From NCBI GenBank assembly GCA_050084515.1, contig CM114271.1, positions 18,538,001 through 18,602,000 of the forward strand: DNA of 64,000 nucleotides. Direction: 5' to 3'. Numbering within the stretch: position 1 is the stretch's first letter; every line of letters begins with the position of its first letter. The position numbers and the translations under genes are program-made. Below the pieces are notes generated by a model, which had not been told where the DNA came from, searched no databases, and worked only from the letters and a program-made list of their open reading frames with translations. Positions 11,226 to 55,930 of the stretch are shown in pieces. The stretch comes from Blasia pusilla. Lineage: Eukaryota.

Positions 11226-11239
11226 ATGTTCCTTGATCT

Positions 11240-14200: not shown

Positions 14201-15220
14201 TGGAGCGGGTTGTCCAAACAGTGGAGAGAGGACTACGCAAGTATGGCTTGCAAAGAGGTCGCCTCAAAGATCGGGACCTCATGTTGGCTTGGTTAGCGAT
14301 GGGATATAGATTCATCATGGTGGCATCCTTAGCGTCTTTCTCACCATACTTGCTTTTGTATGGCGGAGAGCCAGATTTACCTGCAACCATTCGTTGAAAT
14401 GTTAGTGACGTTTTGAACCTTGAAGACTTTCATGTATGGATGCGAGCATGTTCTTAAAAGGCTTAGTTGTTTCCGAGAGTGATGCTCATGGCGTTTAAGA
14501 ACTTGGCAATTGCACAACATTGGGATACATTGAGGTATGCGACAATTCAGGGAGGTATTTTAGGTCATTATCATTACTATTTTAGGTAGGTATCATTTTG
14601 AGTATATGATCCACTTTCTATTTTTGGTAAATGGGCCTTCACCTCCTACATCAGGTCAAGAGCCAAGTAGTTGACTTGCGAGCATAGGTTACCCTGGAGA
14701 GAGCTTGGGAGAAAGGAGGATTGTTCCTCAAGGAGAGATAGCTTGAGAGCTCAGTCTCTCTTTGTTTAACCTCTTGGCATGAGTCGACGGAGCGATGGTC
14801 TTGTTTGCCTTCTGTGTGTAACCTAAGCCTCAATAGGAGAGTGGGTTTGGTTTGACATTGAGAGAGACATGTGAGAGTGCACACATTTAAAAGCTATGGT
14901 GTTGAGAGAGATTGGATCTTATTTTACGAAGAGAGAATGAGTGAATGAAAGAGCTTTCTGGGAGAGCTCGCTGGTTGCTTGATGTTCGGTGCAGGTTGGG
15001 CATTGTGTTCCCCGCTTCATGGCTCATAGGAGTGCTCACTTGAGCAAGAGCCTTATGAGATTGGTCTTTTGCTTTACTGAGTTGTTGTGAGGGAGCGTGG
15101 CACGCGGAAGCGCTCCCCAAATTTTGATAAGAATTGAGTACTGGTGTGGATTGCTCCATGTCGGTGCTCTCGGGAGCACCATGTAGCTTGATGATTTATG
15201 TTCTCACAAGTTTAACATTT
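11240..15220 (+). mobile_element. 5'-truncated Gypsy family A copy: DNMT (motifs IV-X), RT, RNase H, integrase, partial 3' LTR
   Basis: IDLVIYGSSC*G (~11268-11304), DSRSWLFWE, MENVA (~11421), GSQAHWPRLWWTNL, HVLGLGNG/HVLG*AMD (~11900), RMCGDYRPINR, YASRSNN, DGLVERVVQTVERGL. LTR-like sequence 14570-15220 matches 28670-29020. Confidence 0.88.
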
Positions 15221-21207: not shown

Positions 21208-22454
21208 TGTCGTGTGGAGAGCCTTTCTTTGAGTAAGGCCGGACCTTCTTAATGCAACAAATGTGGTTGATGCAAGTTAAACTCTATAAGAAGTTATCAT
21301 TTTTCAAAACATAATTATTATATAAGCCCTCTTTTCTCTCATGAGAGGAATCACTAATGGAAGTGCGGAGGTGATGACTTCTTCATAACCTGCAACCTCA
21401 AAATTGGTAACTATAAAGTCCCTGTAAACTATTTTACATTTGAACATAAGGAAAATACCACATCTAGTGTCAAAACCTACTCGAGCAGGCCTATTGACGT
21501 CCATGGATTGCTATATAAGAACATACAAATAACAATCCCATGTTCTTCCGTATGTGATTATAGGAAGAATCACCGGAGTTGGAGATTGCATGAGTTAGTT
21601 CATGAACGCCTCCCCAAAGTGATTAGATAGATAGCGAGTGAAGGAGTATGCGTTAAGGAAAATAAAATCGGGAAAACTCGTACCCTAAGCCTATTTATAC
21701 TTGAAATGCATCCTCTATTATGCTATAGAATGGGATTTGGCGGAGTTGCTGTCCCAAGAGGGATAATCTTCTCTTATTCGGAAAATAACAAGCCAAATTA
21801 TCTACATTTTCTAGTATGATTAAATTCCCCTAACGTGACAAGTCTCTCATCTCCACACATACCACACTCTAGAATCCTCTGAAAAAAATACCATTGTCAA
21901 GTTAGTAACTCAAAAAGGGTAATCCGCTCTCATTTAAAGAGCAAGAAATCCCAAATTCATCCACTCAAGATTGACACGAGAAACTCAAGATGCAAAGTAG
22001 AAGGTGATGAACTGTTGGAGGTCCCTCCTCTTTATATACTCACAAGAGATCTAGAAGAGAAAGAAATAGGGCCTATCTTATTTTGTGCCACATGGCTTCC
22101 TCTCAAGGCTTAGCCAATCACATTTTGACATAAGTAGATAATCTTTGATATCTTCCAAAATATCCTTCTTACTCATTTCATATCTTTTAAATTACCCAAA
22201 CTACCTTAGCCACCAACCAAGACTACTTTTTCTTTTCTTTCATCAAAGTACCAACACCATTAACTTACTTTTATAATCCCATATTTTATTTATTATCTCT
22301 TTTCCTAAAGTTGGGCCCGTACGAATGAGTCATCCTAAAGAGGTTTAAACATGAGAATTTCATTTTCTTAGGGAAATTTACTCAAAACTAATAAAACTTT
22401 CTCTAACACTTAATGATAGAGGATTTTACATACTGGATGATTTACTATTCAACA
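21208..22454 (-). repeat. Family-B LTR (~1.25 kb)
   Basis: TG...CA ends; similar over its length to 41160-42442, and similarity ends exactly at ...ACGACA (21208). Confidence 0.85.
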
Positions 22455-27989: not shown

Positions 27990-29118
27990 CATTCAACTAG
28001 TCCAAGGCAGCACATTGGAGGACCAACCAATAGTTCTTGTAGGCTTGCGTTGTATGTTGTGTGGCTCTGCTCGTGGTATGGCCACGATGCTAGTCTATGA
28101 TGGATTTTCGAGAGGTTGGCATAAGGCATGTCTAACGCCACCTCTCACTAGGGTTCCCTGGGGAGGATGGATATGTCCCAAATGTACATTGAAGAGATAC
28201 TAGGTAGGTTTTGATTCCAACTTTTTCTATGACATGGATAACAAGAAGGTGACTAACGATGGGGCGATATGAGCACCCGGCCTTTCTACTCCTACCGTCG
28301 TAGAGATGTATGTCGTGGTAGGTAGGGATAGAGGGCTAGATGGAGTTAGAAGGACCTAACCAGCAGATAGGGGGGCCATTGGAAATATTTTAGTTCTTCT
28401 TGTCTCGTTGTTTGGATTTCATGAGCTAGCATCGGATCGTGCGTGTTTGTGTGTGTGCTCAGTGACAGCGGTGTATGTTGTGTAGCAATATGTATACGCA
28501 CAACAGATGTCACGTCTTTTAGGATAGATCGGTGAGATCCAGTAGAACGCCTTTATGAGTAGTGGATGAAAGGCTAAGTAGGTTGAGGATGACCTATTGA
28601 GGCCTCGGGAAACCTGAGAGAGCAGATTTCCCCTTCGTTTCGGCTCATTTGGAGCCATCTTGAGGAACTTACTATTTTAGGTAAGTATCATTTTAAGTAT
28701 ATGATTAACTTTCTATTTTTATTTAGTGGCCTTTGACCTCCTACATCAGGTCAAGAGACAAGGAGGTGACTTGGGATAATAGATTACCATGGAGAGAGCT
28801 CGGAAGAGGGGAGGGGTATACCTTAAAGAGAAAGCGCTTGAGAGCTCTTTGTGTCTTTGTTGAACCTCTTGGCATGAGGCAGCGGAGTTATGGTCCCTTC
28901 CCTTGTGAGTGTTACTAAAGCCTCTCATAAGGACAGTGGGTTTGGTTTGACATGAGAGAGAGTGCACACCTTTGAGAGCTAGGGTGTGAGATGATGTACA
29001 GAGAGATTTGATCTTACTTTATTGGACATATTTTAGTACTTCTTGTCTCGTTGTTTGGATGCCATGAGTTAGCATGGGATCGTGCGTGTTTGTGTGTGTG
29101 TGTGTGTGTATGCGCACG
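27990..29118 (+). mobile_element. Gypsy family A 3' fragment: PHD, PPT, LTR, then a restarted LTR
   Basis: CMLCGSARGMATMLVYDGFSRGWHKACLTPPLTRVPWGGWICPKC (28015-28203). PPT AGATAGGGGGGCCA ~28365-28378. LTR from ~28380; the LTR start recurs at ~29023-29118. Confidence 0.8.
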
Positions 29119-30404: not shown

Positions 30405-33400
30405 ATAGGCCCTTGATCTCACTTAGGAACTATAATTCTGAATGCCCCCGTTCGGGCTCAGTTCTCATCTTTGGAATTGTAACGTGAGTTTCAATTGATC
30501 CTCCTTCTCATTTCAAGAACACGATCTAGATTTCTGATGGTGAGGATGCCGGGAAGGAGGCATGCCTTCTTATTTGGGAACTAAAATTCCAAAGGCCCTC
30601 GTTCTAGGATGGACTCTCATCTCTAGAACAAGAACTTGAGTTCAGATTGATCCTCCTTCTCATTTTGAGAATTCAATCTCTTGTTCCAATGGTAAGAAAG
30701 TCGTGAAAGAGGCCTTGAACCCATTCGGGAACTATGGCTTTGAACGATCCCGTTCGCGCTCAATTCTCCTATCAGAAACCAGAATCTGAGTTAAGATTGG
30801 TCCTCCATCTCATTCCAAGAATTGAATCTCTTGTTCCAATGGTGAGGAAGTCGGGAAAGAGGCCCGCGATCCCATTTGGGAACTACCGCTTTGAACAATC
30901 CCGTTCGTGCTCAGTTCTCCTATCAGAAACCAAAATCTGAGTTTAGATTGATCCTCCTTCTCATTTCAAGAATTGAATCTCTTGTTCCAATGGTGAGGAA
31001 GCCGGGAAATAGGCCCGCTATCCCATTTGAGAACTATAGCTTTGAACACTCCTGTTCGGGCTTAGTTCTCATCTCTGGAACTGCAACCTCAATTCCGTTT
31101 GATCCTCCTTCTCATTCTAAGAATTGGATCTAGAGTTCCGATGGTGAGGTTGCAAGGAAAGAGGCCGGAGATTTGATATTGGAACTAAAGTTTTGAAAGC
31201 CCTCATTTAGGGGGGGACGCTCGTCTCCGTAACCGGAACTTGAATTCTGATTTATCCTCCTTCTCATTTCAAGAACTGGATCTAGAGTTCCGATGGTGAG
31301 GTGGCAAGGAAAGAGACTGGCGATTTGATTTGGGAACTACAATTCCAAAAGTCCTGCTTTAGGGAGGGACTCTTGTATCTGGAAACGGAATATGAGTTCA
31401 GATTGATCCTCCTTCTTATTTCAAGACTTGAATCTCTTGTTTGGATGGTGAGGAAGCCGAAAAAGAGGCCCGCAATCCCATTCAAGAACTACAACTTTGA
31501 ACGCTCTCATTGGGGCTTAGTTCTCATCTCTGAAGCCCAAACTTGAGTTTTGTTTGATCCTCCTTCTCATGTTGAGAACTAGATCTAGAGTTTAGATGAT
31601 GAGGTACCAAGGAAAGAGGCCGACGACTTGATTTGGGAACTACAGTTCCAAAAGCCCTCGTTTAGGGGGACTCTCATCTTTGGAACTAGAACATGAGTTC
31701 TGATTGATCCTCCTAATCATTTCCAGAATTGGATCTAGAGTTCTGATGGTAAGGAATCCGTGAAGGTGACCCGCGATCTCATTTGGGAACTACAATTCTA
31801 AAAGCTCTCGTTCGGACTCAGTTGTCATCTTTGGAACTGGAATCTGAGTTTTGATTGATCCTCCTTCTCATTTCAAGAACTAGATCTAGAGTTCTCATGG
31901 TGAGGAAGTTGGGAAGGAGGCCCACGATCATTTTAGGGAACTACAATTGCGAATACCCCCCGTTCAGACTCAATTCTCGTCTTTAGAATCGGAACTTGAG
32001 TTCTGATTTATCCTCCTTCTCATTTCGAGAATTGGATCTAGAGTGATGATGGTGAGGTAGCAAGGAAAAAGGCCGGCGGTTTGATTTAGGAACTATACTT
32101 CCAAAAGGCCTTGTTTAGGGGGGGACTCTCGTCTTTAGAACTGAAACGTGCGTTTCGATTGTTCCTCCTTCTCATTTCAAGAATTGGATCTATTGTTTTA
32201 ATGGTGAGGAAGCCACGAAGGAGGCCCACAATCTCATTTAGGAAGTACAATTCCGCGAGCTCCCATTTGGACTCGTTGTCATCTTTGGAAGTGGAACTTG
32301 AGTTCAGATTCATCCTCCTTCTCTTTCGAGAATTGGATCTATAGTTCACATGGTCAGGTAGTCGGGAAAGAACCCGCGATCCCATTTGGGAGCCATAGCT
32401 TCAAATGCTCCTATTCGGGCTCAGCTCTCATCTCTAGAATGGGAACTTTAGTGTCTATTGATCTTCCTTCTCATTTTGAGAAGTGGGTATAGAGTTCAAA
32501 TCGTGATCTAGAGGGGAAGGAGGCCCGCGATATGATTTGGGAACTCTAGTTTTGAAAGCCCTTGTTTAGGTAGGGACTCTCGTGTGTGGAACTGGAACAT
32601 GAGTTTTGATTGATCCTCCTTCTCATTTTGAGAATAGGATCTAGAGTTTTGATGGTGAGGAAACCGAGATAAAGGCCAACGATCATTTTTGGGAACTACA
32701 GTTCCGAATGCCCCGTTTGGACTCACTTCTCGTCTCTGGAACCGGAACCTAAGTTGTGATTGATCCTCCTTCTCATTTCAAGAACTAAATCTATAGTTCC
32801 AATGGTGAGGAAGGCGAGAAGGAGGCGCACGAGAATTTTGGGAACTACAACTCCGAACGCCCCAGTTTGGGCTCAATTTTTGTGTCGCGCCCCTACTCTC
32901 CTTGAACGTCAATCTTTAGTGTTGCGGAAGCGTACGTGCAGTAGGTCACGATCTCATCGCCGATCTGCACCCAAAAAAGCACTATCGTTAGTTGGGTCTG
33001 GGCCAACCAGCGTTCCAACCCACCAAGTTCTCAACTCGGCGTCTCGTCAACCTCAACCCTCCTTAGTTCCTAGTTTCCAAAACATGGCAAGTCCTTCAAG
33101 ACTTGGAATAGACTTCCTAGTTAGTCCAAGGATCGGAAACGGCACTTGGGTGCATAGCGATCCCTACTATTCAATGGATCTCGTGTGAACTCCAAAACGA
33201 GACCTAAGTATTTGAGTCGCGGGGTGAAATCCAAGAGGGACGTCTAAAATTGCCTCAATAGACTTGGTGCAGGTTTTCCAACCCAACCCCCAAACTCGCG
33301 TTCCGTTCCATGCCCTTGAGCCGCCCCGCGGCGCCCAAAGTGGGGTTCAGGTTCCAAGCACTCTAGGAGACCTTCCCCTTTTCTAGTACTTGTGAGGTTC

Positions 33401-39699: not shown

Positions 39700-42600
39700 A
39701 ATATGATCTATGAAAATACTAAAACATTTAAAATATCTCTTCTTAAAGTTCTCATCTTCCTCTTTGTATTGTCTCTTTCTTTTTAACGTTTCTTTCCGAC
39801 CAAGAACTCGTTAATCATGCCATTTGATCACAAAATGCAATTTGTTGTTAGGATCGTGCGCCAAAATGAAAATATTGAAATGATCGACCAAGCATTAAAT
39901 GAAATGGTAAATCCTATATAAGATATCCTAATTATGGTTTCATTATATAAGACTAAATGGGAGGTCTCATCCGATGGAGAGGTAGAAGATCTTGCCAAAA
40001 TCCATTCCTTCAAGTTTGAAATCAATCTTACAATGGAATCTGATGATGGTTTCAGATGAAGAAAACACATAGAAGAATACACGTGACGTGTCCACATAAA
40101 GACAATGATCATTATCGTTATTAGTCTTCCTTATTTATATGGCCCATCTTTGAAGTTTACTATTCCATTTCTAAGAGCTTATGAAAACTCCTCACATTCT
40201 CGACGTCGATGCTCAATCCTATCACACCATATACATCTTCTCACAAAGTTCATACTTTTCGAAGGAGCACCAACACTAGGATTCCTATCAAGTTTAAGGT
40301 CGGCCATTCCTACTCTCAACTCTCTCAAACCTTTCACAAAGTCATCAATGGCAGAATCTTCAAGCTTTGTTGAGATGGGCTTAGGAAATGGATTTGAAAT
40401 TGATACCTCTTACTTGAATAGTGCGGTTCTTCCTCTTCTTCAACTTTGATTTGTGAGGACAGCAACAACTTCTTCCACTTTCTTCCAATTATTTTTTACA
40501 CCTCCTTCTTTGGTCTTGTCCGCCAACATTATGAAAAGCTTATCATCCAAATTCTCATCAGTCGCCTCAAGGAATAACTACGTTTTCCTCAAGTCTAGAG
40601 ATGCCCTTCCGGAAGAAGAAAGCCGAAGAAAGCGCTTCTCAAACTAACCCAACAATTCATTTTGAATCATTCCCTTCACTAGATGTTGCTTTATCCATTC
40701 TAGAAAACTCCTCTAAGTCGTCCGATGCATATCATCATCAAAGAATTCTCCTTTCAACAATAGCTCATACTCCTCCCACGAGGTTGGATTTTATGCTCTC
40801 AACTTCTTTTCTTGACTACGGATATCTGATATTATAGCTAACTCAAAATTTGATATGATATCATCTTCGAGTCCACGGTTTACCTCCATCTTACATACAT
40901 ACTCTCGAATATACTTGGCGATGTTCCTCCCGTCAAATCTCCCCAACTTCTTTACAATCGCTTGGAGAGCCCTTGTTGATCTTTGCTCTCCTATGTGAAC
41001 TCCTCCTTGCTAGCTCAACAATATTGTCAAAGTTCGGAGAAGATCCTCAACTCCCTCAATTCCCATTGATGAAGTACTCCCAAAAGTAGTCATCTTGATA
41101 AGACTCTAACTTGCAAACACAATCTACCACCTCAAAGATCTCTCAACGGAAGCATTATTTGTCGTATCGAGAGCCTTTCTTTGAGTAAGGGTAGACCTTC
41201 TAGGTGCAGCACACGTAGTTCATGCAAATCGAACTCTTTAAGAATTAATCATTTTTCAATAGAGAATTATTATGTAAATGCTCCTTTCTCTCACGACAGG
41301 AATCATCAAAGGTAATGTCGAGACGATCACTTCTTCATAAAATGGAACCCCGAAATTCCTAACTATGAAGTCCTTATAAACTACTTTGCGTTTGTGCACA
41401 AGGAAAGTAGCACAACTAGTGAAAAATCCTACTTGAGCTGACCTATTGACGTCCATGGATAGCTATATAAGGACACACAAAGTGCAATCCCTTGTCCTTC
41501 CATTCGTAAATCTACAAAGAATCACCGAATTTGAAAATTGCATGCCTTGGTTCATGAACGTATTCCCAAAATAATAAACTAGATAGCTAGTAAACAAGTG
41601 CCGATCTACAAAGAGAATCTTGACGTGGTACGGGTTAAGGAAAGGAAAATCCGACACAACTCGTGCTCCAACCCTATCAATACTTGACAAACATCATGTA
41701 CTCTCTTCTATGATGGGATTTGGCGGAGTTACTCTCCCAATAGGGGTTATCCACTCTCATTGGGAAAATGACAAGCCAAACCATTCTCTATTCCTAGTTT
41801 GACTAAACTGATCTAAGGTGACAAGTCTCTTATCTCCACACATACCACACACTAGAAACCTCTCGAATAATAGACTAAGGTCAAATTACCCTCCCAAAAG
41901 GGATAATTCATTCTCATTGGAAGAGCAAGCAATCCCAAAGCCATATTCTCAAGAGTGACACGAGAGACTCAAGACGTGAAGTAGAAGAGGATGAACCCTT
42001 GAAGGACCTCCTCTTTATATACTCACAAGGGATCCATAAGATTACGAAATAGGGATAATGTTATCTTGTGCCACATGGTTTCCTCTCAAGGTTTAGCCAA
42101 TCACATTTTGAAACAACTAGATTACCTCTTATCTACTCCAAAATATCATCTTTTACTCCGTTCATATCTTCCAAACTACCCTACCAACCCTAACCACTAA
42201 CAACAAAGACTACTTTTGCTTTTGCTTTATTAAAGCATTAAGACCACTATTTTACTTTTCTAATCCCGTGTTTTATTAATTATATTTTTTCCTAAAGTTG
42301 GGCCCGTGCAAACGAGTCACCCTGAAGAGGTTTAAACATGGGAAGTTCATTTCTCTTGGCTAATTTTCTTAATACTTATAAAACTCTCTCTAACACTTAA
42401 TGATAGAACAACTTACATAGCGGGTGATTTTACTATACGACATTGAGCCCCTCCAAATTTGTACATCCTTCGATATGTGCCAAAAACATTGAGACTTCTT
42501 ACTATTTTACTCACACTTATTTTTGTTTTTCCACAAGACACATTGAATCAAAATCAAGAAATCCCTCACGTCTGCGGAAAATTTGGACCCTTTTTCCTGC

Positions 42601-44194
42601 AATGGTCAGCTTCACAATTGTGCCATCAAGTTGATGTAGTTTGTAAGTGGCATCGTCAAAAGCAAAGACTATAACGTATGAACCAAACCAACGACGTGCA
42701 AACTTCTTAATTATATTGTGCTGGTTATCGAGGCTATTATTGTGCACCAAGACCCAATCTCCTTCTCTTATAGACTCCTTCTAAAATTGATGAGTTTTGT
42801 CAAAGCATTCCTTATTTTTCCAATCTTGCTTCCTTCATTTTGACTAATGCTTCTGCAATAAATTTTTTTGCCGCTCTAGCTGTTGCATTCGAAGTGGTAG
42901 GAGCTCTTCCCTTTCGGCCCTATCTTCCCACGGTAAACCCATGCAAGTGGGAATATCTCCTTCTGCTAGCATTATCGGCTTTTGACCTGTCATTAACTTT
43001 GTAGGCATGAACCTTATAACGGTGCTATGAGTGCTTCTATATGCCCATAAAGAAAATGGAAGTAATCTTGGCCAATTAGCATAACGCTCTCCACACGCCT
43101 TCACTAATGCTTGAATGATTGGCGGATGTCCTCTTTCTGTTTGCCTCCGAATTCATGGAGGTTGTTAGTCTCAGTTGGACTCCATACCTCTTGAAGGACT
43201 CTCGTGCTTCCTCCGCATTCAACTCTCTTCTATCTGCACGGATTCTCCCAACAGTCCCATATCGAGCAACTCTATCCTCTAGAAAAAAATGACATATAGG
43301 CTCTATTGTTTTATTCATAAAGCCCTCGCTTCTACAAAGTTGGACAACTCTTCTCGTATTAGGACCAGGTAGCGCATTCCCAAACAACCTAGTGGCATAG
43401 CAACTAAATCTATAACCCATTGATGATGATTAGACAAAGGATACATGGGTTAAAGTCCATCACCCTGATTTTAGAGTGAAATTGACATTCAACATATGAC
43501 CCAACACATCCCTCAACATCCTTGGACACGCCTTTCCACCAATCCTTGTCTTTCATCTTGGTGAAAGTTTCCCAAGTACCTTTGTGTCTTGCCCATAAAG
43601 AATGGTGAAATTCTTTGAGCACCTACACTTTTGTCCTATTGTCATCCACCACCCTCAAGGGCATCCCATCTTTCCTCTATGGCCTTTTCCAAAGATATCC
43701 ATCTTGTAGTAGATAGCCATACGCCTTATGCCGAATCTCCTTGAAGAACTTATCTCTTCATCCTTCGTCTCTTTACAGAGTGCTTAAATAGCGCCCAATT
43801 TCTTTTAACCTTCCCTTATACAAATTCTCTTTGAAGGCTAGAACATCATCTATTACACCCTGTTATCGCGATGATCCTTGCCACACATATTTATCATCCT
43901 CATCTATCTGAACTGCTTCTATATCTTCCAAACTACCCCCACCAATCCTAACCACCAATCAAGACTACTTTTGCTTTATTAAAGCGCCAATCCCATTTTT
44001 TTACTTTTTCTAATCCCATCTTTTATTTATTATCTTTTTTTTCCTTAAGTTGGGCCTGTGCAAATGAGTCATCCTAAAGAGGTTTAAACATGGGAATTTT
44101 ATTTTCCTAGGCTAATTTAGTTAATACTTATAAAACTCTCTCTAATACTTAATGATATAGGAGGTTGGATAGTTGGTGATTTTACTATACGATA
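39700..44194 (-). mobile_element. Gypsy family B tandem structure: partial LTR, deleted pol/integrase, full LTR, gag
   Basis: Partial LTR 44194-43925. Integrase 43700-42517 (KKFARRWFGSYVI, WPRLLPFSLWAYR). LTR 42442-41160. gag from ~41097: MTTFGST...KKLGRFDGRNIAKYIREY. Confidence 0.85.
41160..42442 (-). repeat. Family-B LTR (1283 bp)
   Basis: Perfect 8-bp terminal inverted repeat TGTCGTAT...ATACGACA; PPT TTGGAGGGGCTCAA upstream. Confidence 0.9.
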
Positions 44195-44889
44195 CCGCTT
44201 TAGTGGTACGAGTAAACTTCTACTACCACTCGTACACCCATCGACTTTTGCAAAATCCCATACCACCCCATCTTAACTCATGTTGAGTTTAATCCGCTCA
44301 CACCACTCAAAGACCATCTTCAACGTGGGCCTCGTCGTATAAACCAACATTGTATCTGAGACTCTTTTCTATAACTCCCGAGCTAGAAACCTAAACCAAT
44401 ACTCCAACAATTTTGCCTCACTCAGTCCATATGTAGCAATGATCAATTATTGCATGTGTGTGAACGCATCTCATAAACTCTCACTCCATGTACGCTTAAA
44501 ATCATGGAGGTGCGGTAAGAGGAGAGGAAGAGAGGAAGAGAGGAGAGAGGAAACTACCTTCAACCTATATATATACTGTTTTTTGAAGAGAGTTTCCGTT
44601 GGGTTGAAGAGAGGAAACTTTTTGTTTGAATTTTTTTTGCTCTTTTTTGTTCATATATTAAGCAGTCCCAATTTTTTTTTTCCTCTTCCATATTTTGGCA
44701 AACCCTCTGAGTCCGACGAGTTGCAAATTGTAGAAAATTTAGAAAAGTGAAAAATCAGTGGAATCATAAGTGTGGAACCAATCACTTGTTCCATCCAAGG
44801 TCTGGAAAAAATCTATCATTTGTCCGGGGCTGAATAGAGTTAAAGCTCAAAGTGAAGGTTAAGGAAAAATAAAAGTCCAATCTAAAACC

Positions 44890-45875
44890 TCATTTTGCAT
44901 CCTCAAAGTGGTTTGTTTCAAATACTGCCGCATGAAGTTTCCCCATTGTCTTATACGTTCAGTCCACCAACTCAACCAAGAGCACAACTCTTTGTACTTC
45001 CCCTCAATCGCATGCTTCCTCCATCACCCATGAAGTTCTTCTTGGCATTCCATGGCTTGCTTCAAGGTTTTGCTGTCCTTGCAGCGTTAGAGTAGAGTGT
45101 CATGCCCTGTCCTCTTATTCTCCTTGATGCAAGATTTGGTGTACCGGGTCATAGACTGTTGCCAATGGAAAGCATCCGACCTTTCCCTCTATGGTTGAAC
45201 CTCTCCACCCCAGAACACTTTCCGTATAGCAATCCACCCAGGTTGTGCATTGTCTGCCATGAACCCATAAATTTCCGGAGGTGGCCTTTTGTTTTCCTTC
45301 ACCACCTCCAATAAGAGTAACCAGCACATCTTCAAACTGCCAACGTCTTCTGCCTTTACTTCACAGACAAATATAGTTTTGAGTCCCTTCTCCACATGGT
45401 CATAAACGTGAGCACCCATTTTCAACCATCCGTTCAGCACTCTGTAGCAAATATCAAAGCTTACCCAGCTCCCGTAAAGATCTTCCCCTTCCCTCATTCG
45501 ATCTATAAGATCGAGGCCACTTGACACACCTGTGGTTGACGTTTTGAAGACAAAGGCCCTGGATCCCTCGCGTCCTTGGCCCATGAACTGCCATCTCTGA
45601 ATGAATGGAAATATGGAGTAGGCCTTGATTCTGGCGATGGCATCCATTTCGGCCGTCTTTCCACCGAGAACTCGTTTTTGACGTAGCAAATTCCGGAAGC
45701 TTTCAGGATCAGCGGATACAAAGATGGTTCCAATTTGAAGAAGAAATCGAACAGAGAGAAAATTTTCATCCACTGGTATGAAAGACTCACGAGTTTGGGG
45801 TCGAATGATTTCTGATTGAGGAAGGGCCGCCAGATGACTGCCACAAGTGAGCTTAACATAATTATCCATTCCCAC
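44890..45875 (-). pseudogene. MULE-type DDE transposase (partial, with premature stops)
   Basis: SWVSFDICYRV (first Asp), AHVYD, IYGFMADNAQPGWIAIRKVF (second Asp). Past the stop: ERSDAFHWQQSM (C/D-x2-H signature) and WLSWWTERIRQWGNF. The third catalytic Glu and the N-terminus were not found. Confidence 0.72.
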
Positions 45876-46119
45876 AAATTTCGTACAGGAGGAGGGTGAG
45901 AATGAGAAAAAGAATGGGAATGAGAATGAGAATGAATTTTTTTAATTTCTAGTGAATAGGAAAATAGATACTCTTGACAGATTTTTACTGACAAGATGAA
46001 TTTAGTAGGTGACATTGTCTGACATAATGGATCCAATTCAATTGTAACACATTCAATTTTGTTGCAATGTGTTACCGGATTTGGGAAGCAGAGACGTGGG
46101 TTGCGAAGCACACTTCATT

Positions 46120-46740
46120 TTGTTGGAACCCGTTGGAGTCCTGGTAACTCAACAATTAACAAGCTAATCAAGCCGCGCAACCCGCCGCCCGTGACGGGTT
46201 GCACGCTTCTGCGTTACCTTCAAACGCAAACATGGTCGAAGCTGGAAACCCGTCGCTCCCCGACGAGTTGCTCGGATATCGCTCCTTCTTGCCCGAAGAT
46301 GCGGGAGGCGTGCAAACCGTCTGTTCCCAACTAATTCCGCGGGTGCCGCACCTATTTGTCCAAAGACGACGAGGCGTGCAACCCGTCGCCCTCCAACGGA
46401 ATGCGCAAGGGCCTAACCTTGTGGTGCTTACATGAAGGAAGTGTGCAACCCGTCAGACTCCGAAGAGTTGCGCAGGAAGCCCGCGTTCGAACCCCTAACG
46501 AGGGAAGCGTGCAACCAAACGATCTCCAACGGATTGCCTAGGTACGTCTCGTCCTTGTCCAAACACGTCAGAGGCATGCAACATGTTGGTCTCCGACGGG
46601 TTGCGCGGGTACCTCGCGTTCTTGTCCGAAGACGACGGAGGCGCTCAACCCGTCGGTCTATGACAGGTTACTCGCGCACGTGGCAACGTACCCAGGACGG
46701 CGGAGGCGCGCAACCTTTCGTACTCCGACGGGTTGCCATT
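46120..46740. repeat. Array of ~10 palindromic motifs (~66-bp spacing) between the divergent genes
   Basis: Variants of GCAACCCGTCGGANTCCGACGGGTTGC at about 46177, 46245, 46312, 46378, 46445, 46511, 46577, 46646, 46710. Confidence 0.85.
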
Positions 46741-46826
46741 TTTCACCTCTGGAACTCCTGTAACCTCCGGCACGTCATTGTCGAAAGGACGACGGGACCC
46801 AACGGTCAGCCTAATGGCTAGAAAAG

Positions 46827-46834
46827 TATAAATA
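46827..46834 (+). promoter_or_regulatory. Putative TATA box of the cargo gene
   Basis: TATAAATA directly after the palindrome array, followed ~30 bp later by a CT-rich leader and then the + strand ORFs. Confidence 0.55.
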
Positions 46835-48339
46835 GGGCAGAAATTGCTCATTTCCGGTTTCTCATTTCGCGATCTCCATTCCTCTCTCTCCTGCGTAGCA
46901 ACTAATCAGATACCAAGGGGCGTTTCATCGCGAGTCGATACGAGGGAACCAGAGAGAGACGGTTCGACCGAAGGAGAGCGAGACGGTTCGACAGAATGAT
47001 CCCGAGACGATTCGAGCTACCCATCAAGGCTATTCATCTCCACATCAGCAAGGCGACTGATCAAGCGATTCATCGTGGACATAGGTGGAGGCATTTCCAG
47101 AAAAAATGACAAGGAAAAAATCACAAGCCAACAAGTCTGGGAGCTTCACTCCGAAGTCCGTTATGACTCCTGCGTCAGCATCTACAGTCGTTCGGCGAAT
47201 GAAATTAGGCAGCAGGAAATCGAGCAGCGGGAAAGGGAAGCGGAGATGCACAACCATGAGCTTCTTGCAAGATGTGTTCAAGAGGCGCTCGATTGACAGA
47301 ACGTAGAGGCTGAGACGTCGCAGGCCTTGAAGAAAAGGATCGCCGACGAAAAGAGAGAAAAGAAGCGTCTGGACGCTTTGGTGAGGAGAACAAAATTGGC
47401 TAAAGCGAGGAGGGAAAAAGCGATAGCCATTGACAACAGCCCTGCCCGTCCAAGCGAAAGTGTTGAGATGCGGGAAATATCCCCGATGAAGTCCGGGGAC
47501 ACAATCAACATAGCAGAAACGCCGAAGTTCAAATCACGGACAACGAGGTCATGAGGACCCCCAACATGGAGATGGTGGACATTGCCAAAGAAGCTGGAGA
47601 GCGGTCATTCTGGTTTCCAAGCCGGGCGGAAGACATCGTCCTCTATCGGATCGACGATTTCCTAGTCGATTTGCCAACTTCTGCCTCACACAAGTTGGCT
47701 GGTCAAGAAACCGACCCAATTTTCGAGCGGGTAAGAGAGGATCTAGGTTTTTTGAATTATGTGAATTGCAATTCATTGGGAATTCAAGGTAGCTTATTGA
47801 TCTTGTCCTGGTTTTGACTGGTGGTAAAGCAAATGGTTCTCATGGAGGGCCACAACGCCACGAGGATTCCACTCTGCCGATTGGGGACAATGGAATACGT
47901 CAGCAAAATTCAATCCCACGAGGACATCGCGAAGCTTAAACAATTGGCGGCGACAGCATCCTACGTTGACAGCTTTCCTCCCTTCTATGTTCAGCCTTAC
48001 GACGAGCATGGAACCCAAGCCCTGGTTACGGAGGAGGACTTGGATAAGCTTGACACATTGTGGAGGATGAGAGACCAGGATGTCAGAAGGCAAGTAGAGG
48101 GCACAGAATTCAGCTGGATGAGGAATCTGTATTTCTTCATATGGGATGGAAATCACAGGTTCATGGCGTGGACCAAGTTTGCAGAGGAGCGTCCCTACTC
48201 CTTGGAGGCACATTTTTGCGTGAAGGGAGTGGTCCTTCATCCATTCCCTCATCACATGGCGACGGTGGAGATGGCAATGCATGCCATGAACACGTGAGTA
48301 TCTTCTTGCAGGGTCGGGACTCTTGTTGGGATGGTTTTG

Positions 48340-49030
48340 GCCAAACGCATTTCGTCGCACTCCGACAAGTTGCTCGATTGATGAGTGGGTTAGGTTTTTT
48401 TTTGCCGAAAGCAACTCGTCCGACTCTGACGAGTTGCTCTACTCGACGCTTTTTCAAGATGTTTTTTGAAGAATCGAACTCGTCGGACTCCGACGAGTTC
48501 TTCAACTAACCACAGATTTAATAAGTTTTTAGCCCAAAGCAAACCGTCGGAGTCCGAGGGGTTGCTCGACTCGTTGCCTTTTCAGGATGTTTTTTGAAGA
48601 AAGAAACTTGTCAGAATCGGACGAGTTGTTCGACTGACCGCAGGTTTAGTATGTTTTTTGCCCAAAGCAATCCGTCGGTGTCTGACGGGTTGCTTGACTC
48701 GAAACTGTTTTTGGCCGAAATCAACTCGTCGGAGTCCGACGGGTTGCATTCGGAAGTTGGTTTAGCAAATTTCGCGTCAAATTGCAAGTTTCCATTCAAT
48801 TGCGCAACCTGTGGGACTTCGACGGGTTGCTATGTTCATGTTAGTATGTTCAGTTGCACAACCCGTCGGAGTCCGACGGGTTGAAACCAGGCATTAGCAA
48901 ATCTGAATGCAATCCGTCGGACTCCGACGGGTTGCATCATTTAGCTCGTTCCTAGAATCCGACCTTGAGCTGTGACAACCCGTCGGAGTCTGGCGGGTTG
49001 TAGGAACCCATGTAATTTTCTGACGGGTTG
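48340..49030. repeat. Intronic array of ~12 palindromic motifs
   Basis: Perfect example CAACCCGTCGGA-G-TCCGACGGGTTG at 48859-48883; the first six copies are spaced ~64 bp. Confidence 0.9.
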
Positions 49031-49239
49031 AGTTTGGATGTGCAGGATTGTATCAGAGGGGAATGTCATCCACCACTAGATACAGGACTGCAATCGGATG
49101 GATAAAAAAAAATGAGTTTCCACTCCGATCCGCGACGAGTCACATTCGGGTAAGGCTCAATTCCTGTAGTATAATCTCAAATATATTTTCAAATTCGGGT
49201 AAGGCTCAATGAGTGTTAATCTCTGTTGTTTTTGTCCGT

Positions 49240-49625
49240 GAGCAACTTGTCGGAAGGCGACGGGCTGGTGTCTTAGAGCTGCCCATGCTCGGCTTAGAGC
49301 AACCCGTCGGTTTCCGACGGGTTGTATCTTTCCCAGATACACAGGGAAAACCGTGGTGTACCTGCAACCCGTCGGAACCCGACGGGTTGCTGTTGCTTTT
49401 GGTTTTTCCCTGTGGTTCCGAAAAGCTGCAACCCGTCTGATAGCGACAGGTTGCTCTCAGCCGAGCATGGGCTGCTCTGGGCCAGCAACCCGTCGCCTTC
49501 CGACGGGTTGCTCACGGACAAAAACAAAGGAGAGCCCGACGGGTTGTTTTGTCCCTAACCAACCCGTCAGAAGGCGACGGGTTGGTCAAGGATAAAACAA
49601 CCCGTCGGACTCCGATAGGTTGACC
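49240..49625. repeat. Intronic array of ~8 palindromic motifs
   Basis: For example GCAACCCGTCGGTTTCCGACGGGTTG (~49299) and GCAACCCGTCGGAACCCGACGGGTTGC (~49364). Confidence 0.9.
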
Positions 49626-50692
49626 CAAAGTTAGTAATTGAAAAAGTTCTCTAGGGTCAAGCCGACTTCTTTAGTTGTTGACATTGTTTCCAACGTGCTT
49701 CTTTACAGATGGACCACTCCTACGTGTACTGCTTCGTTCGGCCCGAGCACAATTTCCAGGTGTTCAAGATCCAGGCTCCTGTGGATCCATGCTTAGATGG
49801 GTACAGCTTAGATAGTTTGTACAATTCCCCCCCGGGAATTTACATGCAAGACAGTACCCCACTTCTGGGAGGAAGGAAAAAATCGCCAACCCTGATGCAA
49901 ATGCTCATCGAGCTCTGCTCAAGGCCGGGTGACTTGGTGTTCGACTTAGTGGGACTTTCAGGGGCAAGTATCAAAGGCGCCTGGCAGAGTGGCAGGAACA
50001 TTCTCTGCCTCGAGGGAATGCAAGAACTGTTGGACCTTTGCAAGGAGGCAAAGGCAGAATACGAAAGGCTCGTTGGGGTGTACAACTCTCCACCGAAGCC
50101 GAGAGCTCCGGTTCCAGACCCACCGTTGGTATTGACTCCATCGTCACTTCCAACGATTCCAAAAATCGGGAGGGCAAGGCCGAAAGTAATTTTGCAGGAG
50201 CTCTTGGAGATGACGAGTGAGTTCAAAGAACTCAACGACCCAGCTTGACTGTAGCGTTTGGAGTCGGGAGTTTTTTATGATGAGGCAAAAGATTTCATAG
50301 AATAGATCAAATGTACAGTTCGGAGCTTTTTTCGGATGATATAAAGAGATGATTTTTTCGAACGATGGTGGTGCTTGTTAAAGTTTTCTGAACATTTTTT
50401 ATGTCTTTTCCAATATGATCGTCTATGTACTCCGGACTTCTATTTTGCAACCAGTCGGATTTCTCCTCCTTGCAACTTTTCACTTTTTGACGACAACGCC
50501 TTTTTACCACTTCCAAGCAACCTGTCGGATTCGACAGGTTTCCTGATCGGACTCTTTCCATGTTGGTCCAACTTAAGAGGCAGTCTGGCAGGCTTCTTCC
50601 CTTGGCACCTTCCCCTCAACTCGTAAAGGCAGGCGTGGGCTTTTTTCTTCTCTCAAACGTGTTGGATTCCTACTACTTGTGCAATTGCCATC

Positions 50693-50978
50693 ATGGTATT
50701 ACCAAGGACGGAGCACATATTGATACTGGATGTGTGTCACATTGCAGAGCGTACAAGGTATACTGTCGAGGAAGACGGTGGGACTCAAATCAGGTTACAT
50801 GGGACTATTATGGCGTACCTAGGGGGGGCCAAGGCTCTCGAATTCGCCAACATTTTTGATCCCCGTCTACAATCAGCCAGAGGAGCCACTTGTATCCCAC
50901 GACATTCCTTTTATACTGTCACCGAGGAGAGTTAGGAGTAAATTTGTAGATGACGAGGCTGAAGAAATCATAGACTAG
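50693..50978 (+). pseudogene. Frameshifted copy of the small ORF at 259-546
   Basis: Same ATG and TAG; 2 nt shorter in a G-run at ~50822. The C-terminus RVRSKFVDDEAEEIID is readable in the shifted frame. Confidence 0.45.
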
Positions 50979-53294
50979 GTCAAATGAACATTTCCAAGGT
51001 TCCTTCGGAGGTAATAAAGGAAGAGATTTTTTCAACCCATAATGGTGTTTTTAAAAGTTTGTTGGAATATTTTGTTGGACTTGTGGATTGTGTTCTTTTA
51101 GCTACTTAGAATTACAATTTTGCAACCCGTATGATTCCGACGGATTGCAACTTTTTGCTTTTTGCCCACTGCAACTTTTTAACCATTTCCAGGCAAGCTG
51201 TCGGATTCTGACATGTTGACTGCTTAAGTGATCGGACTCTTTCCCTATGAGACCAACTTCTGACGCATTGTGGCGGGCTTCTTAACGTTTGGATCGTTCC
51301 CCTACATTTGTCAAACCAGTTGTAGGCTTATTTTCTTGTCTAAGATGTGCAGGATTCCTTTCCTACTACCTGTCGGATTGCCATTTCAGATTCCCAACCT
51401 GTTAGATCGTCGTGGGTGCAGGGTGGAAGAAAATCACCTCAAAAAATCTTTCCTTTCTTATGGTGAGCTTTCTTACTGGTTGGGAGGGGTGCACCTTCTC
51501 GATTTCTCAGCCTTAGAATCTGAATGAAGGAACATCAGTTCCTCTTTAGTCCAAACAACTAACAATCTTTTGGTTCAATTATCCTCTCATGTGTTCACAT
51601 TTCACAAATTTGGTCTTGAGCGCACACCATTCATAACCAACATAAAGTTGGTTATGGGGCAATTCAGGGGAGGCCATGATGCAGGCAACAATCCCTGCAA
51701 AAAGAGAGGTTGGCATCCGGGTGGTCCTCCAACAAAAATACCCATGTGCACTGCTTTTTGTAGACCGAGACAGGTAATGTTAAGAAACTTAGGCTCACAT
51801 GGAGAGTGATGGAAAAATGTTTGTAGTGGTCTTATGATCTCTACTTTTTTTTCGCCCCTAGGAAAAAGGAGGGTTTTTTAGGGCCAAATGTGGACCACTA
51901 CCTACTCTCTTCTAAAGATTTCATGAATTTGAAAGCAAACAAAAATTTCAAATACGTCAAAAATTTTTGAAGAGAGGAGGCGGATTTGGCCCTTTTTTTT
52001 TAAGAGAGACTCTCCTCTCTTCCTCTCTTCCTCTCCTCTCTTACTCTCTCCTGCCAGAATACCAGCCCCCAAAATCATGTAGACTCTTTAGTTGGTCAAT
52101 TAATGCAACCTTGTAGATCCTTCCCAACTATCAAAATAACTTAATTGTAGTCCTAAAATTGGATTGTGCTCTTCCACTTGAGGTCTGTGCCATCTCAATG
52201 CCGTCACTACCATCGACTTCATCTGGTTAATAGATTGATGGCTTAGTTCTACTCCAACTCATAATCCTATCATACGCCTTGCGGCAACTCGGGGAGACAT
52301 ATCTTGGAGCCAAATACATCTTGTATGTATTGGGCTTCAAAGTGCATGTCAATATGTGTGATCTTCGATCAATCGATATCCTAGCTCCGTATTCAAGAGA
52401 GAATCCAAGCTGAATGCATGTAAGTTGCACTGTATAGTAGATCCCATTATGGGTCTGATCATAAGGAAAATGAGTTCTAAGTGAGCTTCATCCTATGTAT
52501 ACCCCCTAAAACCTCCATAGGTGACGTGTACATACAGAAAATATCCCCTCTAGCGGGTCACTACCAACCTCGAGTATACAAAGTACTTACTCCCCAACAA
52601 CCATCGATGTGTTCCTATCGTCAGACCAACTACCAACAAACCCTTGACCTTATAGGCCAAAGTGGTTAGAGAAACCTCCCTATATCCACAAACCCGCTAC
52701 ACACCCAAGAGATCTAGCTTGTCATCCTTGCTACATTTATGAAGCCTACCCTCTTCTTGATATCCAATTGCAACACCCTCTCCTCTAAAATCTACATCGG
52801 CATATAGAGCGATAGCCACCCTCCGCTATGAGAGAATTCAAATGCTAACAATCTAATTCCCTACTAGGCATCAAGCAAGAGAGGTGCTCCAAAGGCTCTC
52901 CATAAGAAAGATGGCTTGAAAAACTTTCCATCTCTCTCTTATACACTAAGGAAGAATCAAAATGCTCTTCCCCCCAAAATAGCCTCTTGAAAGAGAACCT
53001 GCAAGTTCAAAGTAATGGATGATAGTTGACTCAATCAATGAGTCATGTAGAAAAAATAACATACTATTTTTTCTATATGACTCGTAGAAACACAAGTGCA
53101 GATTGTAGCATTGCTCTTGCCTGGTCCTTTTGGCATGCCTGAATGAGAGAGATTTTTGACATGTTTGTGATGACCTCTAGGAGGAATGGACACTCTCGAC
53201 TCTTCTTGTGTTGGGGCAGAGGGCATTTTCTTGAATGTTAAGTCCCTACACACGAAAACTTATCAATTGATGGAGGGAACGTCTAAGTGTTCAA

Positions 53295-53730
53295 TGCTTG
53301 CAACCCGTCGAAATCGGTCGGGTTGCAAGATTAATTGTTCTCGCTTTAAGTAACTTCCAACCCGTCCGAATCGGATAGATTGAAAGATTCAAATTTCTTC
53401 CTTTAAGTAACTTGCAACCCCTCAGATTCTCACCGAAAGCACGGTGAATTTTTTTTCAACTTTTTTCAACTTTTTTGATTCTGACGAGTTGTATGATGAA
53501 CTTTTTAAACAAAATTTGCAACCCGTCAGATTCAGACGGGTTGCAAGATGAACTTGTTTTGCAAAAAAGTAGCCAAAAAAGTTGAAAAAAATTTACAATC
53601 CGTCGGATTCTCACGGGTTGCAAGCCGTCGGATCTGGATATTCGGCAATTCCATGTAACTTGTCAATTCCGACGGGTTGCTTTACCTACCTTCTTTGCAA
53701 CCCGTACAATTCCGATGGATTGCAACCTTA
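53295..53730. repeat. Separate cluster of the same palindromic motif (fragment of a related transposon)
   Basis: GCAACCCGTCGAAATCGGTCGGGTTGC (~53299), GCAACCCGTCAGATTCAGACGGGTTGC (~53518) and several more. Confidence 0.75.
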
Positions 53731-53859
53731 CACTTGGACCATACACTTGGAAAAAATGGAGAAAACTCACCAGCCGCATAAAGTTTCCCATTGTCTCATA
53801 TGGACGGTCCACCAACTGAGCCACCAACACAACTCTTTGTATTTATCCTCAATTGCATG

Positions 53860-55930
53860 CAACTAAATGGGACACATGTGTTGCGAGTTTGGGAGGATGG
53901 TAGAGTACGTGAGCACGTGCTCATCCTTCACAAAGAGCACGTTTGGTGCATCATGCCCATGAGGAGTTGGGTGATTTTGAAGTGCAGCGGACGTGCAACT
54001 TTCCCTAGAGTATGGTGGCGAGGCACGTAGACTAAAATTTAGCAATTGGTCACCAGATGCATGATGTGTGATCAGGTCCATATATCATTCAATGCTCCGA
54101 CTCCACACTTACATCCAATTCCGATCATGGGTCTAGGTTATAGATAGAGTTTGGATTTTGCAGGACCTTTAACCTTGACAGAGCGCCATAGTCGTTATGT
54201 GTTGGTGATGGTTGAGCACTTCTCAAAGTGGAAAGAGTTGGTTGCATTTCCTGGAAAAGTGAGTGAAGGAGTAGCGTATGCCTTCCTAGATTGAGTGTTG
54301 AGTCATTACAATACATAAACTGGGGTGTTGAGAGACCAAGGTACGGAGTTTCGCGGGGAGTTTCAGGCCTTGTGTGATCAGGCGCTGATCGACCACTGCA
54401 CCACTTCGCGAGAGCATGTTGAGGCAAATGGACTAGCGGAGAGGGTTGTGCAGACGGTAAAGAGAGGATTACCTATGGCTTGTAGAGAGGTCGCCTAGGA
54501 TATTGGGACCTCTAGTTTCCGTGGTTGGCGATGGAATATAAATTCATCACGCAGGCATCCTTAGCATCTTTCTCACCATTCTTGCTACTTTATGGCCGAG
54601 AGCCTGATTTACCTACGAGCATTCATTGAGATGTCGGTGAGGTGTTGAACCTTGATGACCCTGATGTATGGATGCAAGCATGTTCTCTAAGGGTTGAGTT
54701 ATTTTGGGGAGTGATGCCCATGGCATTCGAGAGCTTGGTGATTGCGCAACATTAGGATACGTACGAGGTATGCGACCATTCATGTATATGGTGATCGATC
54801 GACTATCCGGAGGTTCCATCAGGGAGACTATGGCAACTTGTAGCAGACGGCATCCACGACGTTGGATGTGACTGCAAGGCGCACTATCTTGAGAGTGCAT
54901 GAGGTTTTGCCATCTGGCGTTCTTTTATTGGAGGGATGCAATGGTATTATTTGGAAGGACCATGTGCGTAATTGTACGCCATGTCACCTTCCTAAGAGTG
55001 ATGATACAGTTGATTCGAGTTTAGCAGTAGTTCCTACAAGCTTGCAATGTATGTTGTGTGATTCTGCTCGTGGTGCAGCTATTATGCTAGTATGTGATGG
55101 ATGTTCGAGAGGGTGGCACATGGCATGTCTGACACCACCTTGCACTAGGATTCCTCGGGGATGATGGATGTATCCTAGATGTACGTAGAGTACGTAGTCT
55201 AGATTTTAACTTGTGTTTGTGACATGGATGACAAGTAGGCGACTAATGATGGGGCCACATGAGCACCCGACCTTTTTGTTCTTAGCGTTCGAGAGATGTA
55301 TGTTATGGTAGGTAGGGATAGATGGCTATTTGGAGTTAGAGGGATGTAACCAGTAGCTAGGGGGCGATTGGAGATATTTTGGTACTCCTCGTCTCGTTAT
55401 TTGGATGCCATGAATTTGTATGGGATCATGTGTGTTTGCATGTGTGTTTGGTGACAATGATGTATGTTGTGTAGCGATGTATATGCGCACGACATTTGTC
55501 ACATCTTTTAGGATAGATCGGAGGAATCTAGTAGAGCACCTTTGGAGATACTAAAGGATAACATCATGAGTTTGAGGATGCCCTGTTGACGCCACAGGTA
55601 ACCTGCGAGAGCAGGTTTCCCCTTCGTTTCGGCCTATTTGGAGCCATATTGAGAAACTTATTATTTTGGGTAAATTACCATTTTTGGTTTAGTTGAAACT
55701 TTGGGAAGTGGCCCTTTACCTACTACAACAGTTTAAGAGCCAAGGAGATGATATGCGATCATAGATTACCGTGGAGAGGGCTTGGGAGAAGGAAGGGGGT
55801 ATACCTTGAAGAGAGAGAGCTTGAAAACTCAAACTCATTCTCTCTTTGTTGAACCTCTTGGCATGAGGCGGAGGAGCTATGGTCCTCCTTTCCTTGTGTG
55901 TGTAATCCAAGCCTCTCATTAGGAGAATGG
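53860..55930 (+). mobile_element. Gypsy family A 3' fragment: integrase, PHD, PPT, partial LTR
   Basis: Integrase fragments homologous to 3200-2050. PHD CMLCDSARGAAIMLVCDGCSRGWHMACLTPPCTRIPRG*WMYPRC (~55046-55183). PPT ~55358-55367; LTR from ~55369. Confidence 0.88.

Follow-up and report, generated by a model that had tools for sequence, protein, structure and literature searches.

A conserved palindrome in the promoter region and introns of a Mutator-like element of Blasia pusilla and its candidate role in transposon self-recognition

A 64,000-nucleotide stretch of Blasia pusilla DNA (assembly GCA_050084515.1, contig CM114271.1, positions 18,538,001 to 18,602,000 of the forward strand), hereafter the window, contains a Mutator-like element (MULE) in which a long palindrome is repeated in three arrays between positions 46120 and 49625. 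Our analysis showed that this palindrome is a real, selected cis-element of a new MULE variant. The arrays probably act as self-recognition sites for a two-fold symmetric protein encoded by the element, which would license its transcription and mobility. An initial annotation of the window had described them as a candidate parS-like operator array; that label is an analogy only.

A palindrome with a fixed half-site gap is repeated in three arrays

A mismatch scan of the 64 kb with the 27-mer as query, allowing up to 8 mismatches, returned 42 matches, 25 of which lie within 46120-49625 (23 at up to 6 mismatches), and the block-shuffled control gave 1 match in total over 20 shuffled windows. The matches form three arrays of 7 (46245-46736), 11 (48347-49001), and 7 units (49242-49623), and additional degenerate copies can be seen by eye at ~46126, ~46177, and ~46312. 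The initial annotation had counted about 30 copies, which is slightly high but fair once the degenerate ones are included. It had also placed scattered copies at ~44700, 50446, and 51122; these were found at 44698, 50447, and 51122, together with two more at 50517 and 51193. Twelve palindromes beyond the focal element (10-1106 and 53300-53723) belong to two other family members, and positions 1107-44697 gave zero matches at up to 8 mismatches.

The arrays are tandem repeats with a varying number of units, and array 3 is partly a local inverted duplication. Their spacing, put at roughly 55-66 bp by the initial annotation, is indeed mostly 54-67 bp, but the full range is 37-83 bp. Helical phasing is mixed, with spacings of 42, 54, 64, and 83 alongside 46, 57, and 67.

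The palindrome is real, but it is better described as two 11-bp arms at a fixed gap, GCAACCCGTCG-N5-CGACGGGTTGC, than as a 27-bp unit, of which an exact scan found no perfect copy in the window. Across the genome (390 Mb, 26 contigs), exact arms with any 5-nt centre occur at 2,221 sites and full exact copies, comprising the arms and a GANTC centre, at 522 sites; the reversed-pattern control gave 0 in both cases. The centre is looser than the arms, with GANTC as its commonest form. For the 2,178 half-sites that match well in the fetched loci, an inverted partner lies at exactly 5 nt in 1,885 cases and at another gap in 99, while 194 are unpartnered. Information content is 1.4-1.5 bits in the arms and 0.13 in the flanks, which gives the motif sharp edges. 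Scans of prokaryotic genomes and metagenomes for the arm pattern found 1 and 2 isolated, unrelated single matches, respectively.

The arrays belong to a family of non-TIR Mutator-like elements

The focal element (44507-52070, 7,564 bp, unstranded) lies between identical 9-bp target-site duplications (TSDs; 44498-44506 and 52071-52079, both plus strand). Genome-wide, its exon at 47818-48294 gave 2,884 candidate matches; the 150 that were scored are 87-93% identical, the window itself excepted. Twenty copies were fetched with their flanks, 11 of these were aligned with the window copy, and a family consensus of 12,493 bp was built from the aligned copies by script. Full-length copies measure 11.5-12.8 kb, and 7 of the 8 aligned two-ended copies have a TSD of 9-10 bp. 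The window copy is a deleted version of this ~12.5-kb element, belongs to a subfamily that we named A, lacks three blocks of the consensus (427-2345, 3134-4201, and 7597-9521), and is dead.

The consensus contains a minus-strand, two-exon transposase gene, a divergent three-exon accessory gene, and one open frame of 124 amino acids (aa). The element and the two candidate proteins that the initial annotation had named, the accessory protein and the transposase, thus exist according to the consensus and homologue alignments. The transposase has a DDE core of the form D..D..DxxH, in which DAFH follows 26 aa after the second D, and a CxC...CxH SWIM pattern in exon 2. This can be compared with the published rule for MULEs, a (C/D)xxH 15-45 aa after the second D and a C-terminal SWIM domain (PMC5499845). 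Pfam did not recognise the transposase, and its MULE DDE and SWIM domains are assigned by pattern. The element ends are short, offset, GA-rich imperfect inverted repeats with only ~43 bp of similarity, distinct from the palindrome. Since long terminal inverted repeats (TIRs) are missing, the element is of the non-TIR type. Overall it fits a non-TIR MULE, because its TSD length, its DDE/SWIM pattern, and its degenerate ends match published MULE features, among them a TSD range of 8-11 bp (PMC6446971).

The palindrome is conserved while its spacers diverge

A diverged fragment at 53097-53860 of the window led to a second subfamily, B, whose exons share 70-84% DNA identity with those of A, and a third subfamily, C, likewise carries arrays. 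Between A and B, synonymous divergence (dS) is 0.5-2.0 and the ratio of nonsynonymous to synonymous divergence (dN/dS) 0.09-0.26 across both genes, while dN/dS between A and one C copy is 0.06-0.42. Purifying selection acts on the accessory gene (dN/dS 0.06-0.19). Spacers of corresponding introns and promoters bear no relation to each other between subfamilies, with a flank GC content from 0.28 to 0.60, whereas 9 of 11 array groups share one arm consensus and the remaining two deviate from it by a single base. Ten array pairs gave a motif identity of 0.74-0.82, which is inflated because motifs were picked by their likeness to the consensus, and a flank identity of 0.27-0.35, which is not. The claim that the palindrome is kept while the spacers diverge was therefore borne out. 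When Riccia proteins were used to search the genome for more distant families, nothing beyond subfamilies A-C came up, and these all share the motif; scans of metagenomes and viruses for related loci returned none.

The same pattern is found within subfamily A. In intron 1 of the accessory gene, compared among 24 distinct copies, shared alleles per column outside CG/CHG contexts amount to 0.069 in arms, 0.079 in exons, and 0.186 in spacers; inside CG/CHG contexts, the values are 0.34, 0.54, and 0.61. Arms are better kept than spacers in 22 of the 24 intron-1 copies and in 14 of 17 of the miniature elements described below. CG/CHG singletons are equally frequent in arms (0.025), exons (0.023), and spacers (0.025). 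As judged from these alignments, the arms were held under exon-like constraint in active lineages and decay like all else after insertion, because shared alleles are rare in arms and CG/CHG singletons are equal. Taken together, the comparisons support purifying selection on the palindrome at the sequence level.

Palindromes are confined to non-coding parts of the element

The consensus holds 37 palindromes, none of which (0/37) falls within its 7,282 exon bp, although exons make up 58% of its length; the earlier observation that coding exons lack copies thus extends to the family consensus. A single palindrome lies near the left end; the transposase intron has 5, the stretch between the promoters 9, the two accessory introns 11 and 7, and the 3' region 4. 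The proposed concentration in promoter region and introns also holds.

In the window copy, a single palindrome (44698-44724), conserved in subfamilies A and B, lies ~190 bp inside the left end. It is followed by the transposase remnant (44906-45867, minus strand), which keeps the D..D..DxxH core but has lost its Cys/His-rich N-terminal domain to a deletion at ~45714 and the 5-motif intron together with the SWIM exon to another at ~44925. Array 1 (46120-46736; 7 palindromes at up to 8 mismatches plus ~3 degenerate ones) lies between the two divergent genes, and a TATA box at ~46827 follows ~90 bp beyond its end. The accessory gene runs on the plus strand. Its exon 1 (47106-48294) is broken in the first half and encodes in 47818-48294 the ParB/Srx-like part with a WDGNHR motif. 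Intron 1 (48295-49047) carries array 2 and is followed by a remnant of exon 2 (49048-49149), in which a ~1.9-kb deletion at ~49107 removed the helical region and methyltransferase motif IV. The predicted intron 2 (49150-49709) contains array 3, and exon 3 (49710-50248) encodes the half of a beta-class amino-methyltransferase fold that binds S-adenosylmethionine (SAM; motif I). The 3' region (50277-51384) consists of two duplicated blocks with the palindrome pairs 50447/50517 and 51122/51193.

RNA data from three runs of one study, with reads placed on a sister copy at 85% likeness, are in line with this gene structure. Element reads are few (374-484 per run of 10-12 million records), and none is 99% identical. 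Reads over the transposase and accessory genes run in opposite directions. Splicing at the predicted ends is seen in 16 junction reads for the transposase intron and in 7 for accessory intron 1, the latter flagged "between: not known"; no junction of accessory intron 2 occurs in the reads of the three runs. Unspliced reads from the arrays are present, and reads are sparse upstream of the TATA box.

Traced exact sites belong to the family and its miniature derivatives

Tracing of exact sites covered the first 50 listed of the 522, all on contig 1, and each of the 50 belongs to the family, which speaks against a motif abundant in unrelated loci. Gene-bearing members account for 47 sites (46 through fetched DNA and 1 through a ParB-exon match 360 bp away), miniature elements for 2, and a fragment of a subfamily-B intron for 1.

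The miniature elements (306-734 bp) have both MULE ends and no genes, and their AT-rich interior is unrelated to the full element. Among 1,584 candidates, 40 were scored and the 25 best taken as short elements; two ends were recognized at 25 of 26 loci. Of these 25, 24 hold 1-4 motifs, a rate that is biased upward because the query itself contained the motif, and 18 have an 8-11-bp duplication under a loose search. One 343-bp element holds a single perfect palindrome.

An array near a Helitron was considered as a second host of the motif and rejected: it is a fragment of a subfamily-B intron that has no TSD, and the empty site is found elsewhere. This array (L169:686-1351; G000:C1, ~16.41 Mb) is inserted into a repeat that adjoins a Helitron Rep/PIF1 gene; a UBA/FAF1-type host gene lies ~2 kb downstream of the array, and locus L208 has the empty site. 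Two further observations concern the family as a whole. Miniature elements carry a lone half-site near their left end (e.g., G000:C1:14817595-14817945), and family members are often nested in or adjoining each other, sometimes beside a palindrome (L028, L106, L116, L120, L122, and L035), which may reflect self-targeting.

The accessory protein combines a ParB/Srx-like part with a degenerate methyltransferase fold

The accessory product of ~1,200 aa consists of a ParB/Srx-like N-terminal part, a helical middle, and a C-terminal beta-class methyltransferase fold. It has 39 homologues at E<=0.001 among 1.84 billion representatives; of 10 that were looked up, 8 are Riccia sorocarpa or R. fluitans entries for hypothetical proteins, with identities of 22-41%, and the other 2 lack a name. 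The C-terminal part matches PF01555 below the cut-off (E 4e-4), DpnA (E 3e-5), and, more weakly, CcrM (E 0.08) and an N4-cytosine methyltransferase, and one homologue matches NF010253 (E 1e-3). As in the beta class, the motif IV region precedes the SAM-binding motif I.

The catalytic motif of beta-class enzymes is (D/N/S)PP(Y/F/W). In the accessory protein it is replaced by D-[LMIV]-P-x, which lacks the aromatic residue in 17/17 aligned rows, one of which has H for D. The idea that the palindrome is a target for methylation is doubtful because this aromatic residue is absent; in addition, the GANTC centre, the CcrM/HinfI site, is kept by just 522 of the 2,221 exact-arm sites. The degenerate methyltransferase fold probably acts as a DNA-binding or base-shielding module.

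In the N-terminal part, WDGNH, presumably a ParB/Srx-type signature, is invariant in 12/12 aligned homologues. Profile and embedding searches added a DUF1015 match (E 0.011) and, as a language-model lead, an Atlas cluster with 11% ParB_N at 0.94. The fold model of the ParB-like exon is too poor (pLDDT 46), and structure searches with it were uninformative. Searches for a helix-turn-helix (HTH) gave no Pfam or PDB match in the helical region, the element consensus contains no ParA partner, and a homodimer prediction for a Riccia homologue gave no verdict. The comparison with VANC is based on the Pfam and PDB matches of the accessory protein, which point to a methyltransferase fold.

Three other loci are related to these domains. 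A 44-base piece of the ParB-like exon (L152:5552-5595) occurs in 28-47 reads per run of an otherwise unrelated transcript and may have been captured by an expressed gene. A genuine match to ParB_N, above the cut-off, lies on a small contig (G000:C23:43897-44163), is unrelated to the element, and may be organellar or bacterial carry-over. An open frame adjoining a family copy (L073:1-906; G000:C1:55905283+) has a weak match to C5 cytosine methyltransferases (E 0.25) and possibly belongs to another mobile element.

A proposed model of self-recognition and its alternatives

The sites have multiplied by local tandem duplication in the divergent promoter, three introns, and both end regions. We read them as sites of a homodimer because the gap is fixed, the arms are invariant, the spacers are free, and exons are avoided, and as self-recognition sites because their placement in promoter and introns copies the VANDAL layout. 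The internal arrays appear free for a regulatory role because the ends have their own GA-rich repeat. In the proposed mechanism, a dimer of an element protein would dock on the palindrome arrays and thereby mark family members as self. This marking would hold the CpG-rich divergent promoter in an open state, allowing transcription of both genes and movement of the element, in the manner of VANC in VANDAL and TnpA in Spm, and the gene-less miniature derivatives would keep the palindrome to exploit the element protein in trans. The initial annotation had likewise suggested sites for a dimeric element-encoded protein; the constraint, the non-coding confinement, and the fixed half-site gap support this in part, while the binding and the identity of the binder are what we infer. 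As binder we tentatively favour the accessory protein, because the ends carry a separate repeat for the transposase and because the accessory gene shows strong conservation although its catalytic motif is not intact.

Several points weigh against this reading. The motif has not diverged between subfamilies, unlike the targets of VANC, and the equal CG/CHG singletons indicate no lasting protection of dead copies against methylation-type mutation. Copies are related, so counts are not independent, and the motif rate of the short elements carries the bias mentioned above. RNA support is of low depth, comes from a single study, and derives from other copies (<99% identity). Finally, the profile PF02195 (ParB_N) gives no match on the element, and the ParB-likeness of the accessory protein rests on the invariant DGNH motif, DUF1015, and the language-model lead.

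A close second candidate for the binder, possible but less likely than the accessory protein and counted within the overall likelihood of self-recognition, is the transposase. Its N-terminal Cys/His domain, of WRKY-GCM1 type, would read each arm, the arrays would serve as autoregulatory sites and transposition enhancers, and the accessory protein would do other work. Residues ~240-355 are Cys/His-rich, and the nearest named Atlas clusters of the N-terminal region are ALS2CR8, GCM, FAR1, and ZSWIM3_N (scores 0.79-0.87, taken as leads). WRKY-GCM1 domains are known from MULE transposases (PMC1702500), and the GCM site ATGCGGGT (PMC2172107) shares CGGGT with the arm, but a match of 5 bp is weak. 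The transposase of AtMu1 activates cognate copies (bioRxiv 10.64898/2026.08.24.746577), excision of Muta1 is raised by subterminal repeats (PMC5499845), and the miniature elements retain the motif, all of which would suit a transposase site. However, a WRKY-GCM1-type N-terminal domain has no Pfam, PDB, hidden Markov model, or fold support (model pLDDT 38), and the protein database holds no homologues of this region. Moreover, the AtMu1 and Muta1 transposases bind ends, but the majority of the present arrays are 2-5 kb away from one, and the ends of the present element have a GA-rich repeat of their own.

A more elaborate version of the accessory-protein hypothesis, which we regard as rather doubtful, posits that a liverwort-type Mutator lineage captured a prokaryotic module of ParB/Srx and beta-methyltransferase. 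Its dimer would load on the dyads, whose ancestral centre would be GANTC, spread in a nucleotide-dependent manner, and shield or re-mark CpG-rich DNA against silencing by 5-methylcytosine. If true, a eukaryotic transposon would have turned a bacterial clamp or restriction-modification mechanism against silencing, separately from VANC, and miniature elements would be exploiting it. The ParB/parS mechanism evoked by the initial annotation does not find support in the missing PF02195 match or in the outcome of the HTH and ParA searches.

It is improbable that the palindrome is recognized by a transcription or chromatin factor of the host and that the element multiplied the site so as to tap host expression, such as during a germline window. 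The motif is constant though the candidate DNA-binding proteins of the subfamilies differ by 15-30%, as expected for a slowly evolving host protein, but none of the 50 checked exact sites lies in a family-independent host promoter, and 22 specified bases are long for a host factor. Still less probable, and largely refuted by the comparisons of array pairs and alleles, is a neutral by-product of slippage, gene conversion, or hairpin-templated repair. The tandem arrays with their variable unit number, the partial inversion of array 3, and the free decay of dead copies would agree with such an origin. Neutral conversion is disfavoured because it would have carried the spacers along and homogenised them, yet the flanks are at chance identity and the motif edges sharp; in addition, the CpG-rich arms survive a dS of ~1.

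The least probable alternative is selection on nucleic-acid structure, either intronic RNA hairpins (in splicing, as small-RNA precursors, or as decoys) or DNA cruciforms: the folding of intron 1 is far stronger than that of shuffled sequences (z -20.7) and some reads of the intron arrays occur in RNA, but good folding is expected of any palindrome array, one array sits before the TATA box in a stretch with few reads, the loop is of fixed length, and the sequence shows no co-variation. Symmetric double changes are in excess (407 vs 237 expected in 1,548 motif instances), but this excess sits at positions 6-7, which are CHG/CG C-to-T sites, and is largely one inherited variant, while invariant positions show almost no such changes. 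Compensatory change in the arms, one of the signs expected by the initial annotation, was therefore rejected as explained by methylation-prone positions and inheritance. Its lack is not fatal to a protein site because it tests for a hairpin, and the hairpin itself is disfavoured because it would tolerate changes of loop and paired sequence. On this comparative evidence, it is the sequence rather than the hairpin that is under selection.

Relation to known systems

The closest parallel to these self-recognition sites is found in the VANDAL elements, whose VANC proteins bind tandem motifs in upstream regions and introns and remove silencing (PMC5735166; PMC10398659). Both systems comprise a MULE with degenerate ends and an accessory gene, and a tandem motif that is present upstream and in introns and absent from exons. 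They differ in that VANC motifs are 8-9 bp long, in one orientation, and fast-changing, whereas here a 27-bp dyad is the same across subfamilies and the accessory protein is ParB-like and methyltransferase-like. Spm TnpA and AtMu1 resemble the present family in that an element protein acts on dense motif clusters shared by non-autonomous elements (bioRxiv 10.64898/2026.08.24.746577), but their clusters are terminal, while those described here are mostly internal and formed by a spaced palindrome. Muta1 is likewise a MULE with repeated protein-binding units that may enhance mobility; these are 12-bp direct repeats inside the TIR, comparable with the GA-rich end repeat of our element, from which the palindrome is separate (PMC5499845).

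Like ParB/parS, the family has a repeated palindrome, and the same mobile DNA encodes a protein whose motif is of the ParB/Srx type. In contrast, parS is 16 bp long and read by an HTH, ParB forms a CTP-dependent clamp that works with ParA, and an integrated transposon needs no partition (PMC8494293). The beta-class amino-methyltransferases (DpnA, CcrM, rotifer N4CMT, and Marchantia MpDN4MT1) are similar to the accessory C-terminal part in motif order, in addition to the DpnA profile match. MpDN4MT1 differs in that it has TSPPY and is described as a host gene, whereas here the fold ends a transposon protein and lacks the aromatic residue. A preprint on N4-methylcytosine in Marchantia describes TSPPY enzymes without ParB (10.1101/2021.02.12.428880). 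A review of eukaryotic adenine methyltransferases mentions ParB-HTH fusions from chlorophytes and chytrids as well as DIRS1 elements with inactive methyltransferases, and the present family does not appear in its main-text passages (PMC4738411). The element, the motif, and a MULE-borne ParB-like/methyltransferase gene were not found described in full-text literature, a provisional result whose scope leaves out subscription papers and repeat libraries.

Sequence-specific anti-silencing by transposons has been documented almost only in flowering plants (VANC, TnpA, and AtMu1). With its long, sharp site and two candidate proteins, the family would add a second architecture of independent origin, from the genome of an early-diverging plant, which makes transposon self-recognition and reactivation testable there. 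The accessory gene may exemplify a bacterial methyltransferase fold on a plant DNA transposon, and a binder specific for 22 bases that possibly opposes methylation would be a useful part for chromatin targeting.

Other features of the window

Two further family members occur in the window. The right end of one occupies 1-1628, carries 6 palindromes, and continues to the left of the window. The subfamily-B fragment (53097-53860, minus strand) comprises a transposase intron with 6 palindromes set in an unrelated AT-rich spacer, and is truncated at 53860 by a piece of a retroelement. Degenerate retroelement pieces, with integrase-like and PHD-finger-like remnants in both orientations, extend over 1700-14600, 28000-28900, and 53861-55900. 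An open frame of 120-124 aa (50491-50920; 137-546) lies between the duplicated 3' blocks in several subfamilies and has no family match; it is possibly a small third gene. To the left of the focal element, a second dispersed repeat forms ~80% identical blocks 20 kb apart (21208-23134 and 41160-44182), and a tandem array of ~16 units of 151-152 bp occupies 30407-32875, with stragglers at 33859 and 34431.

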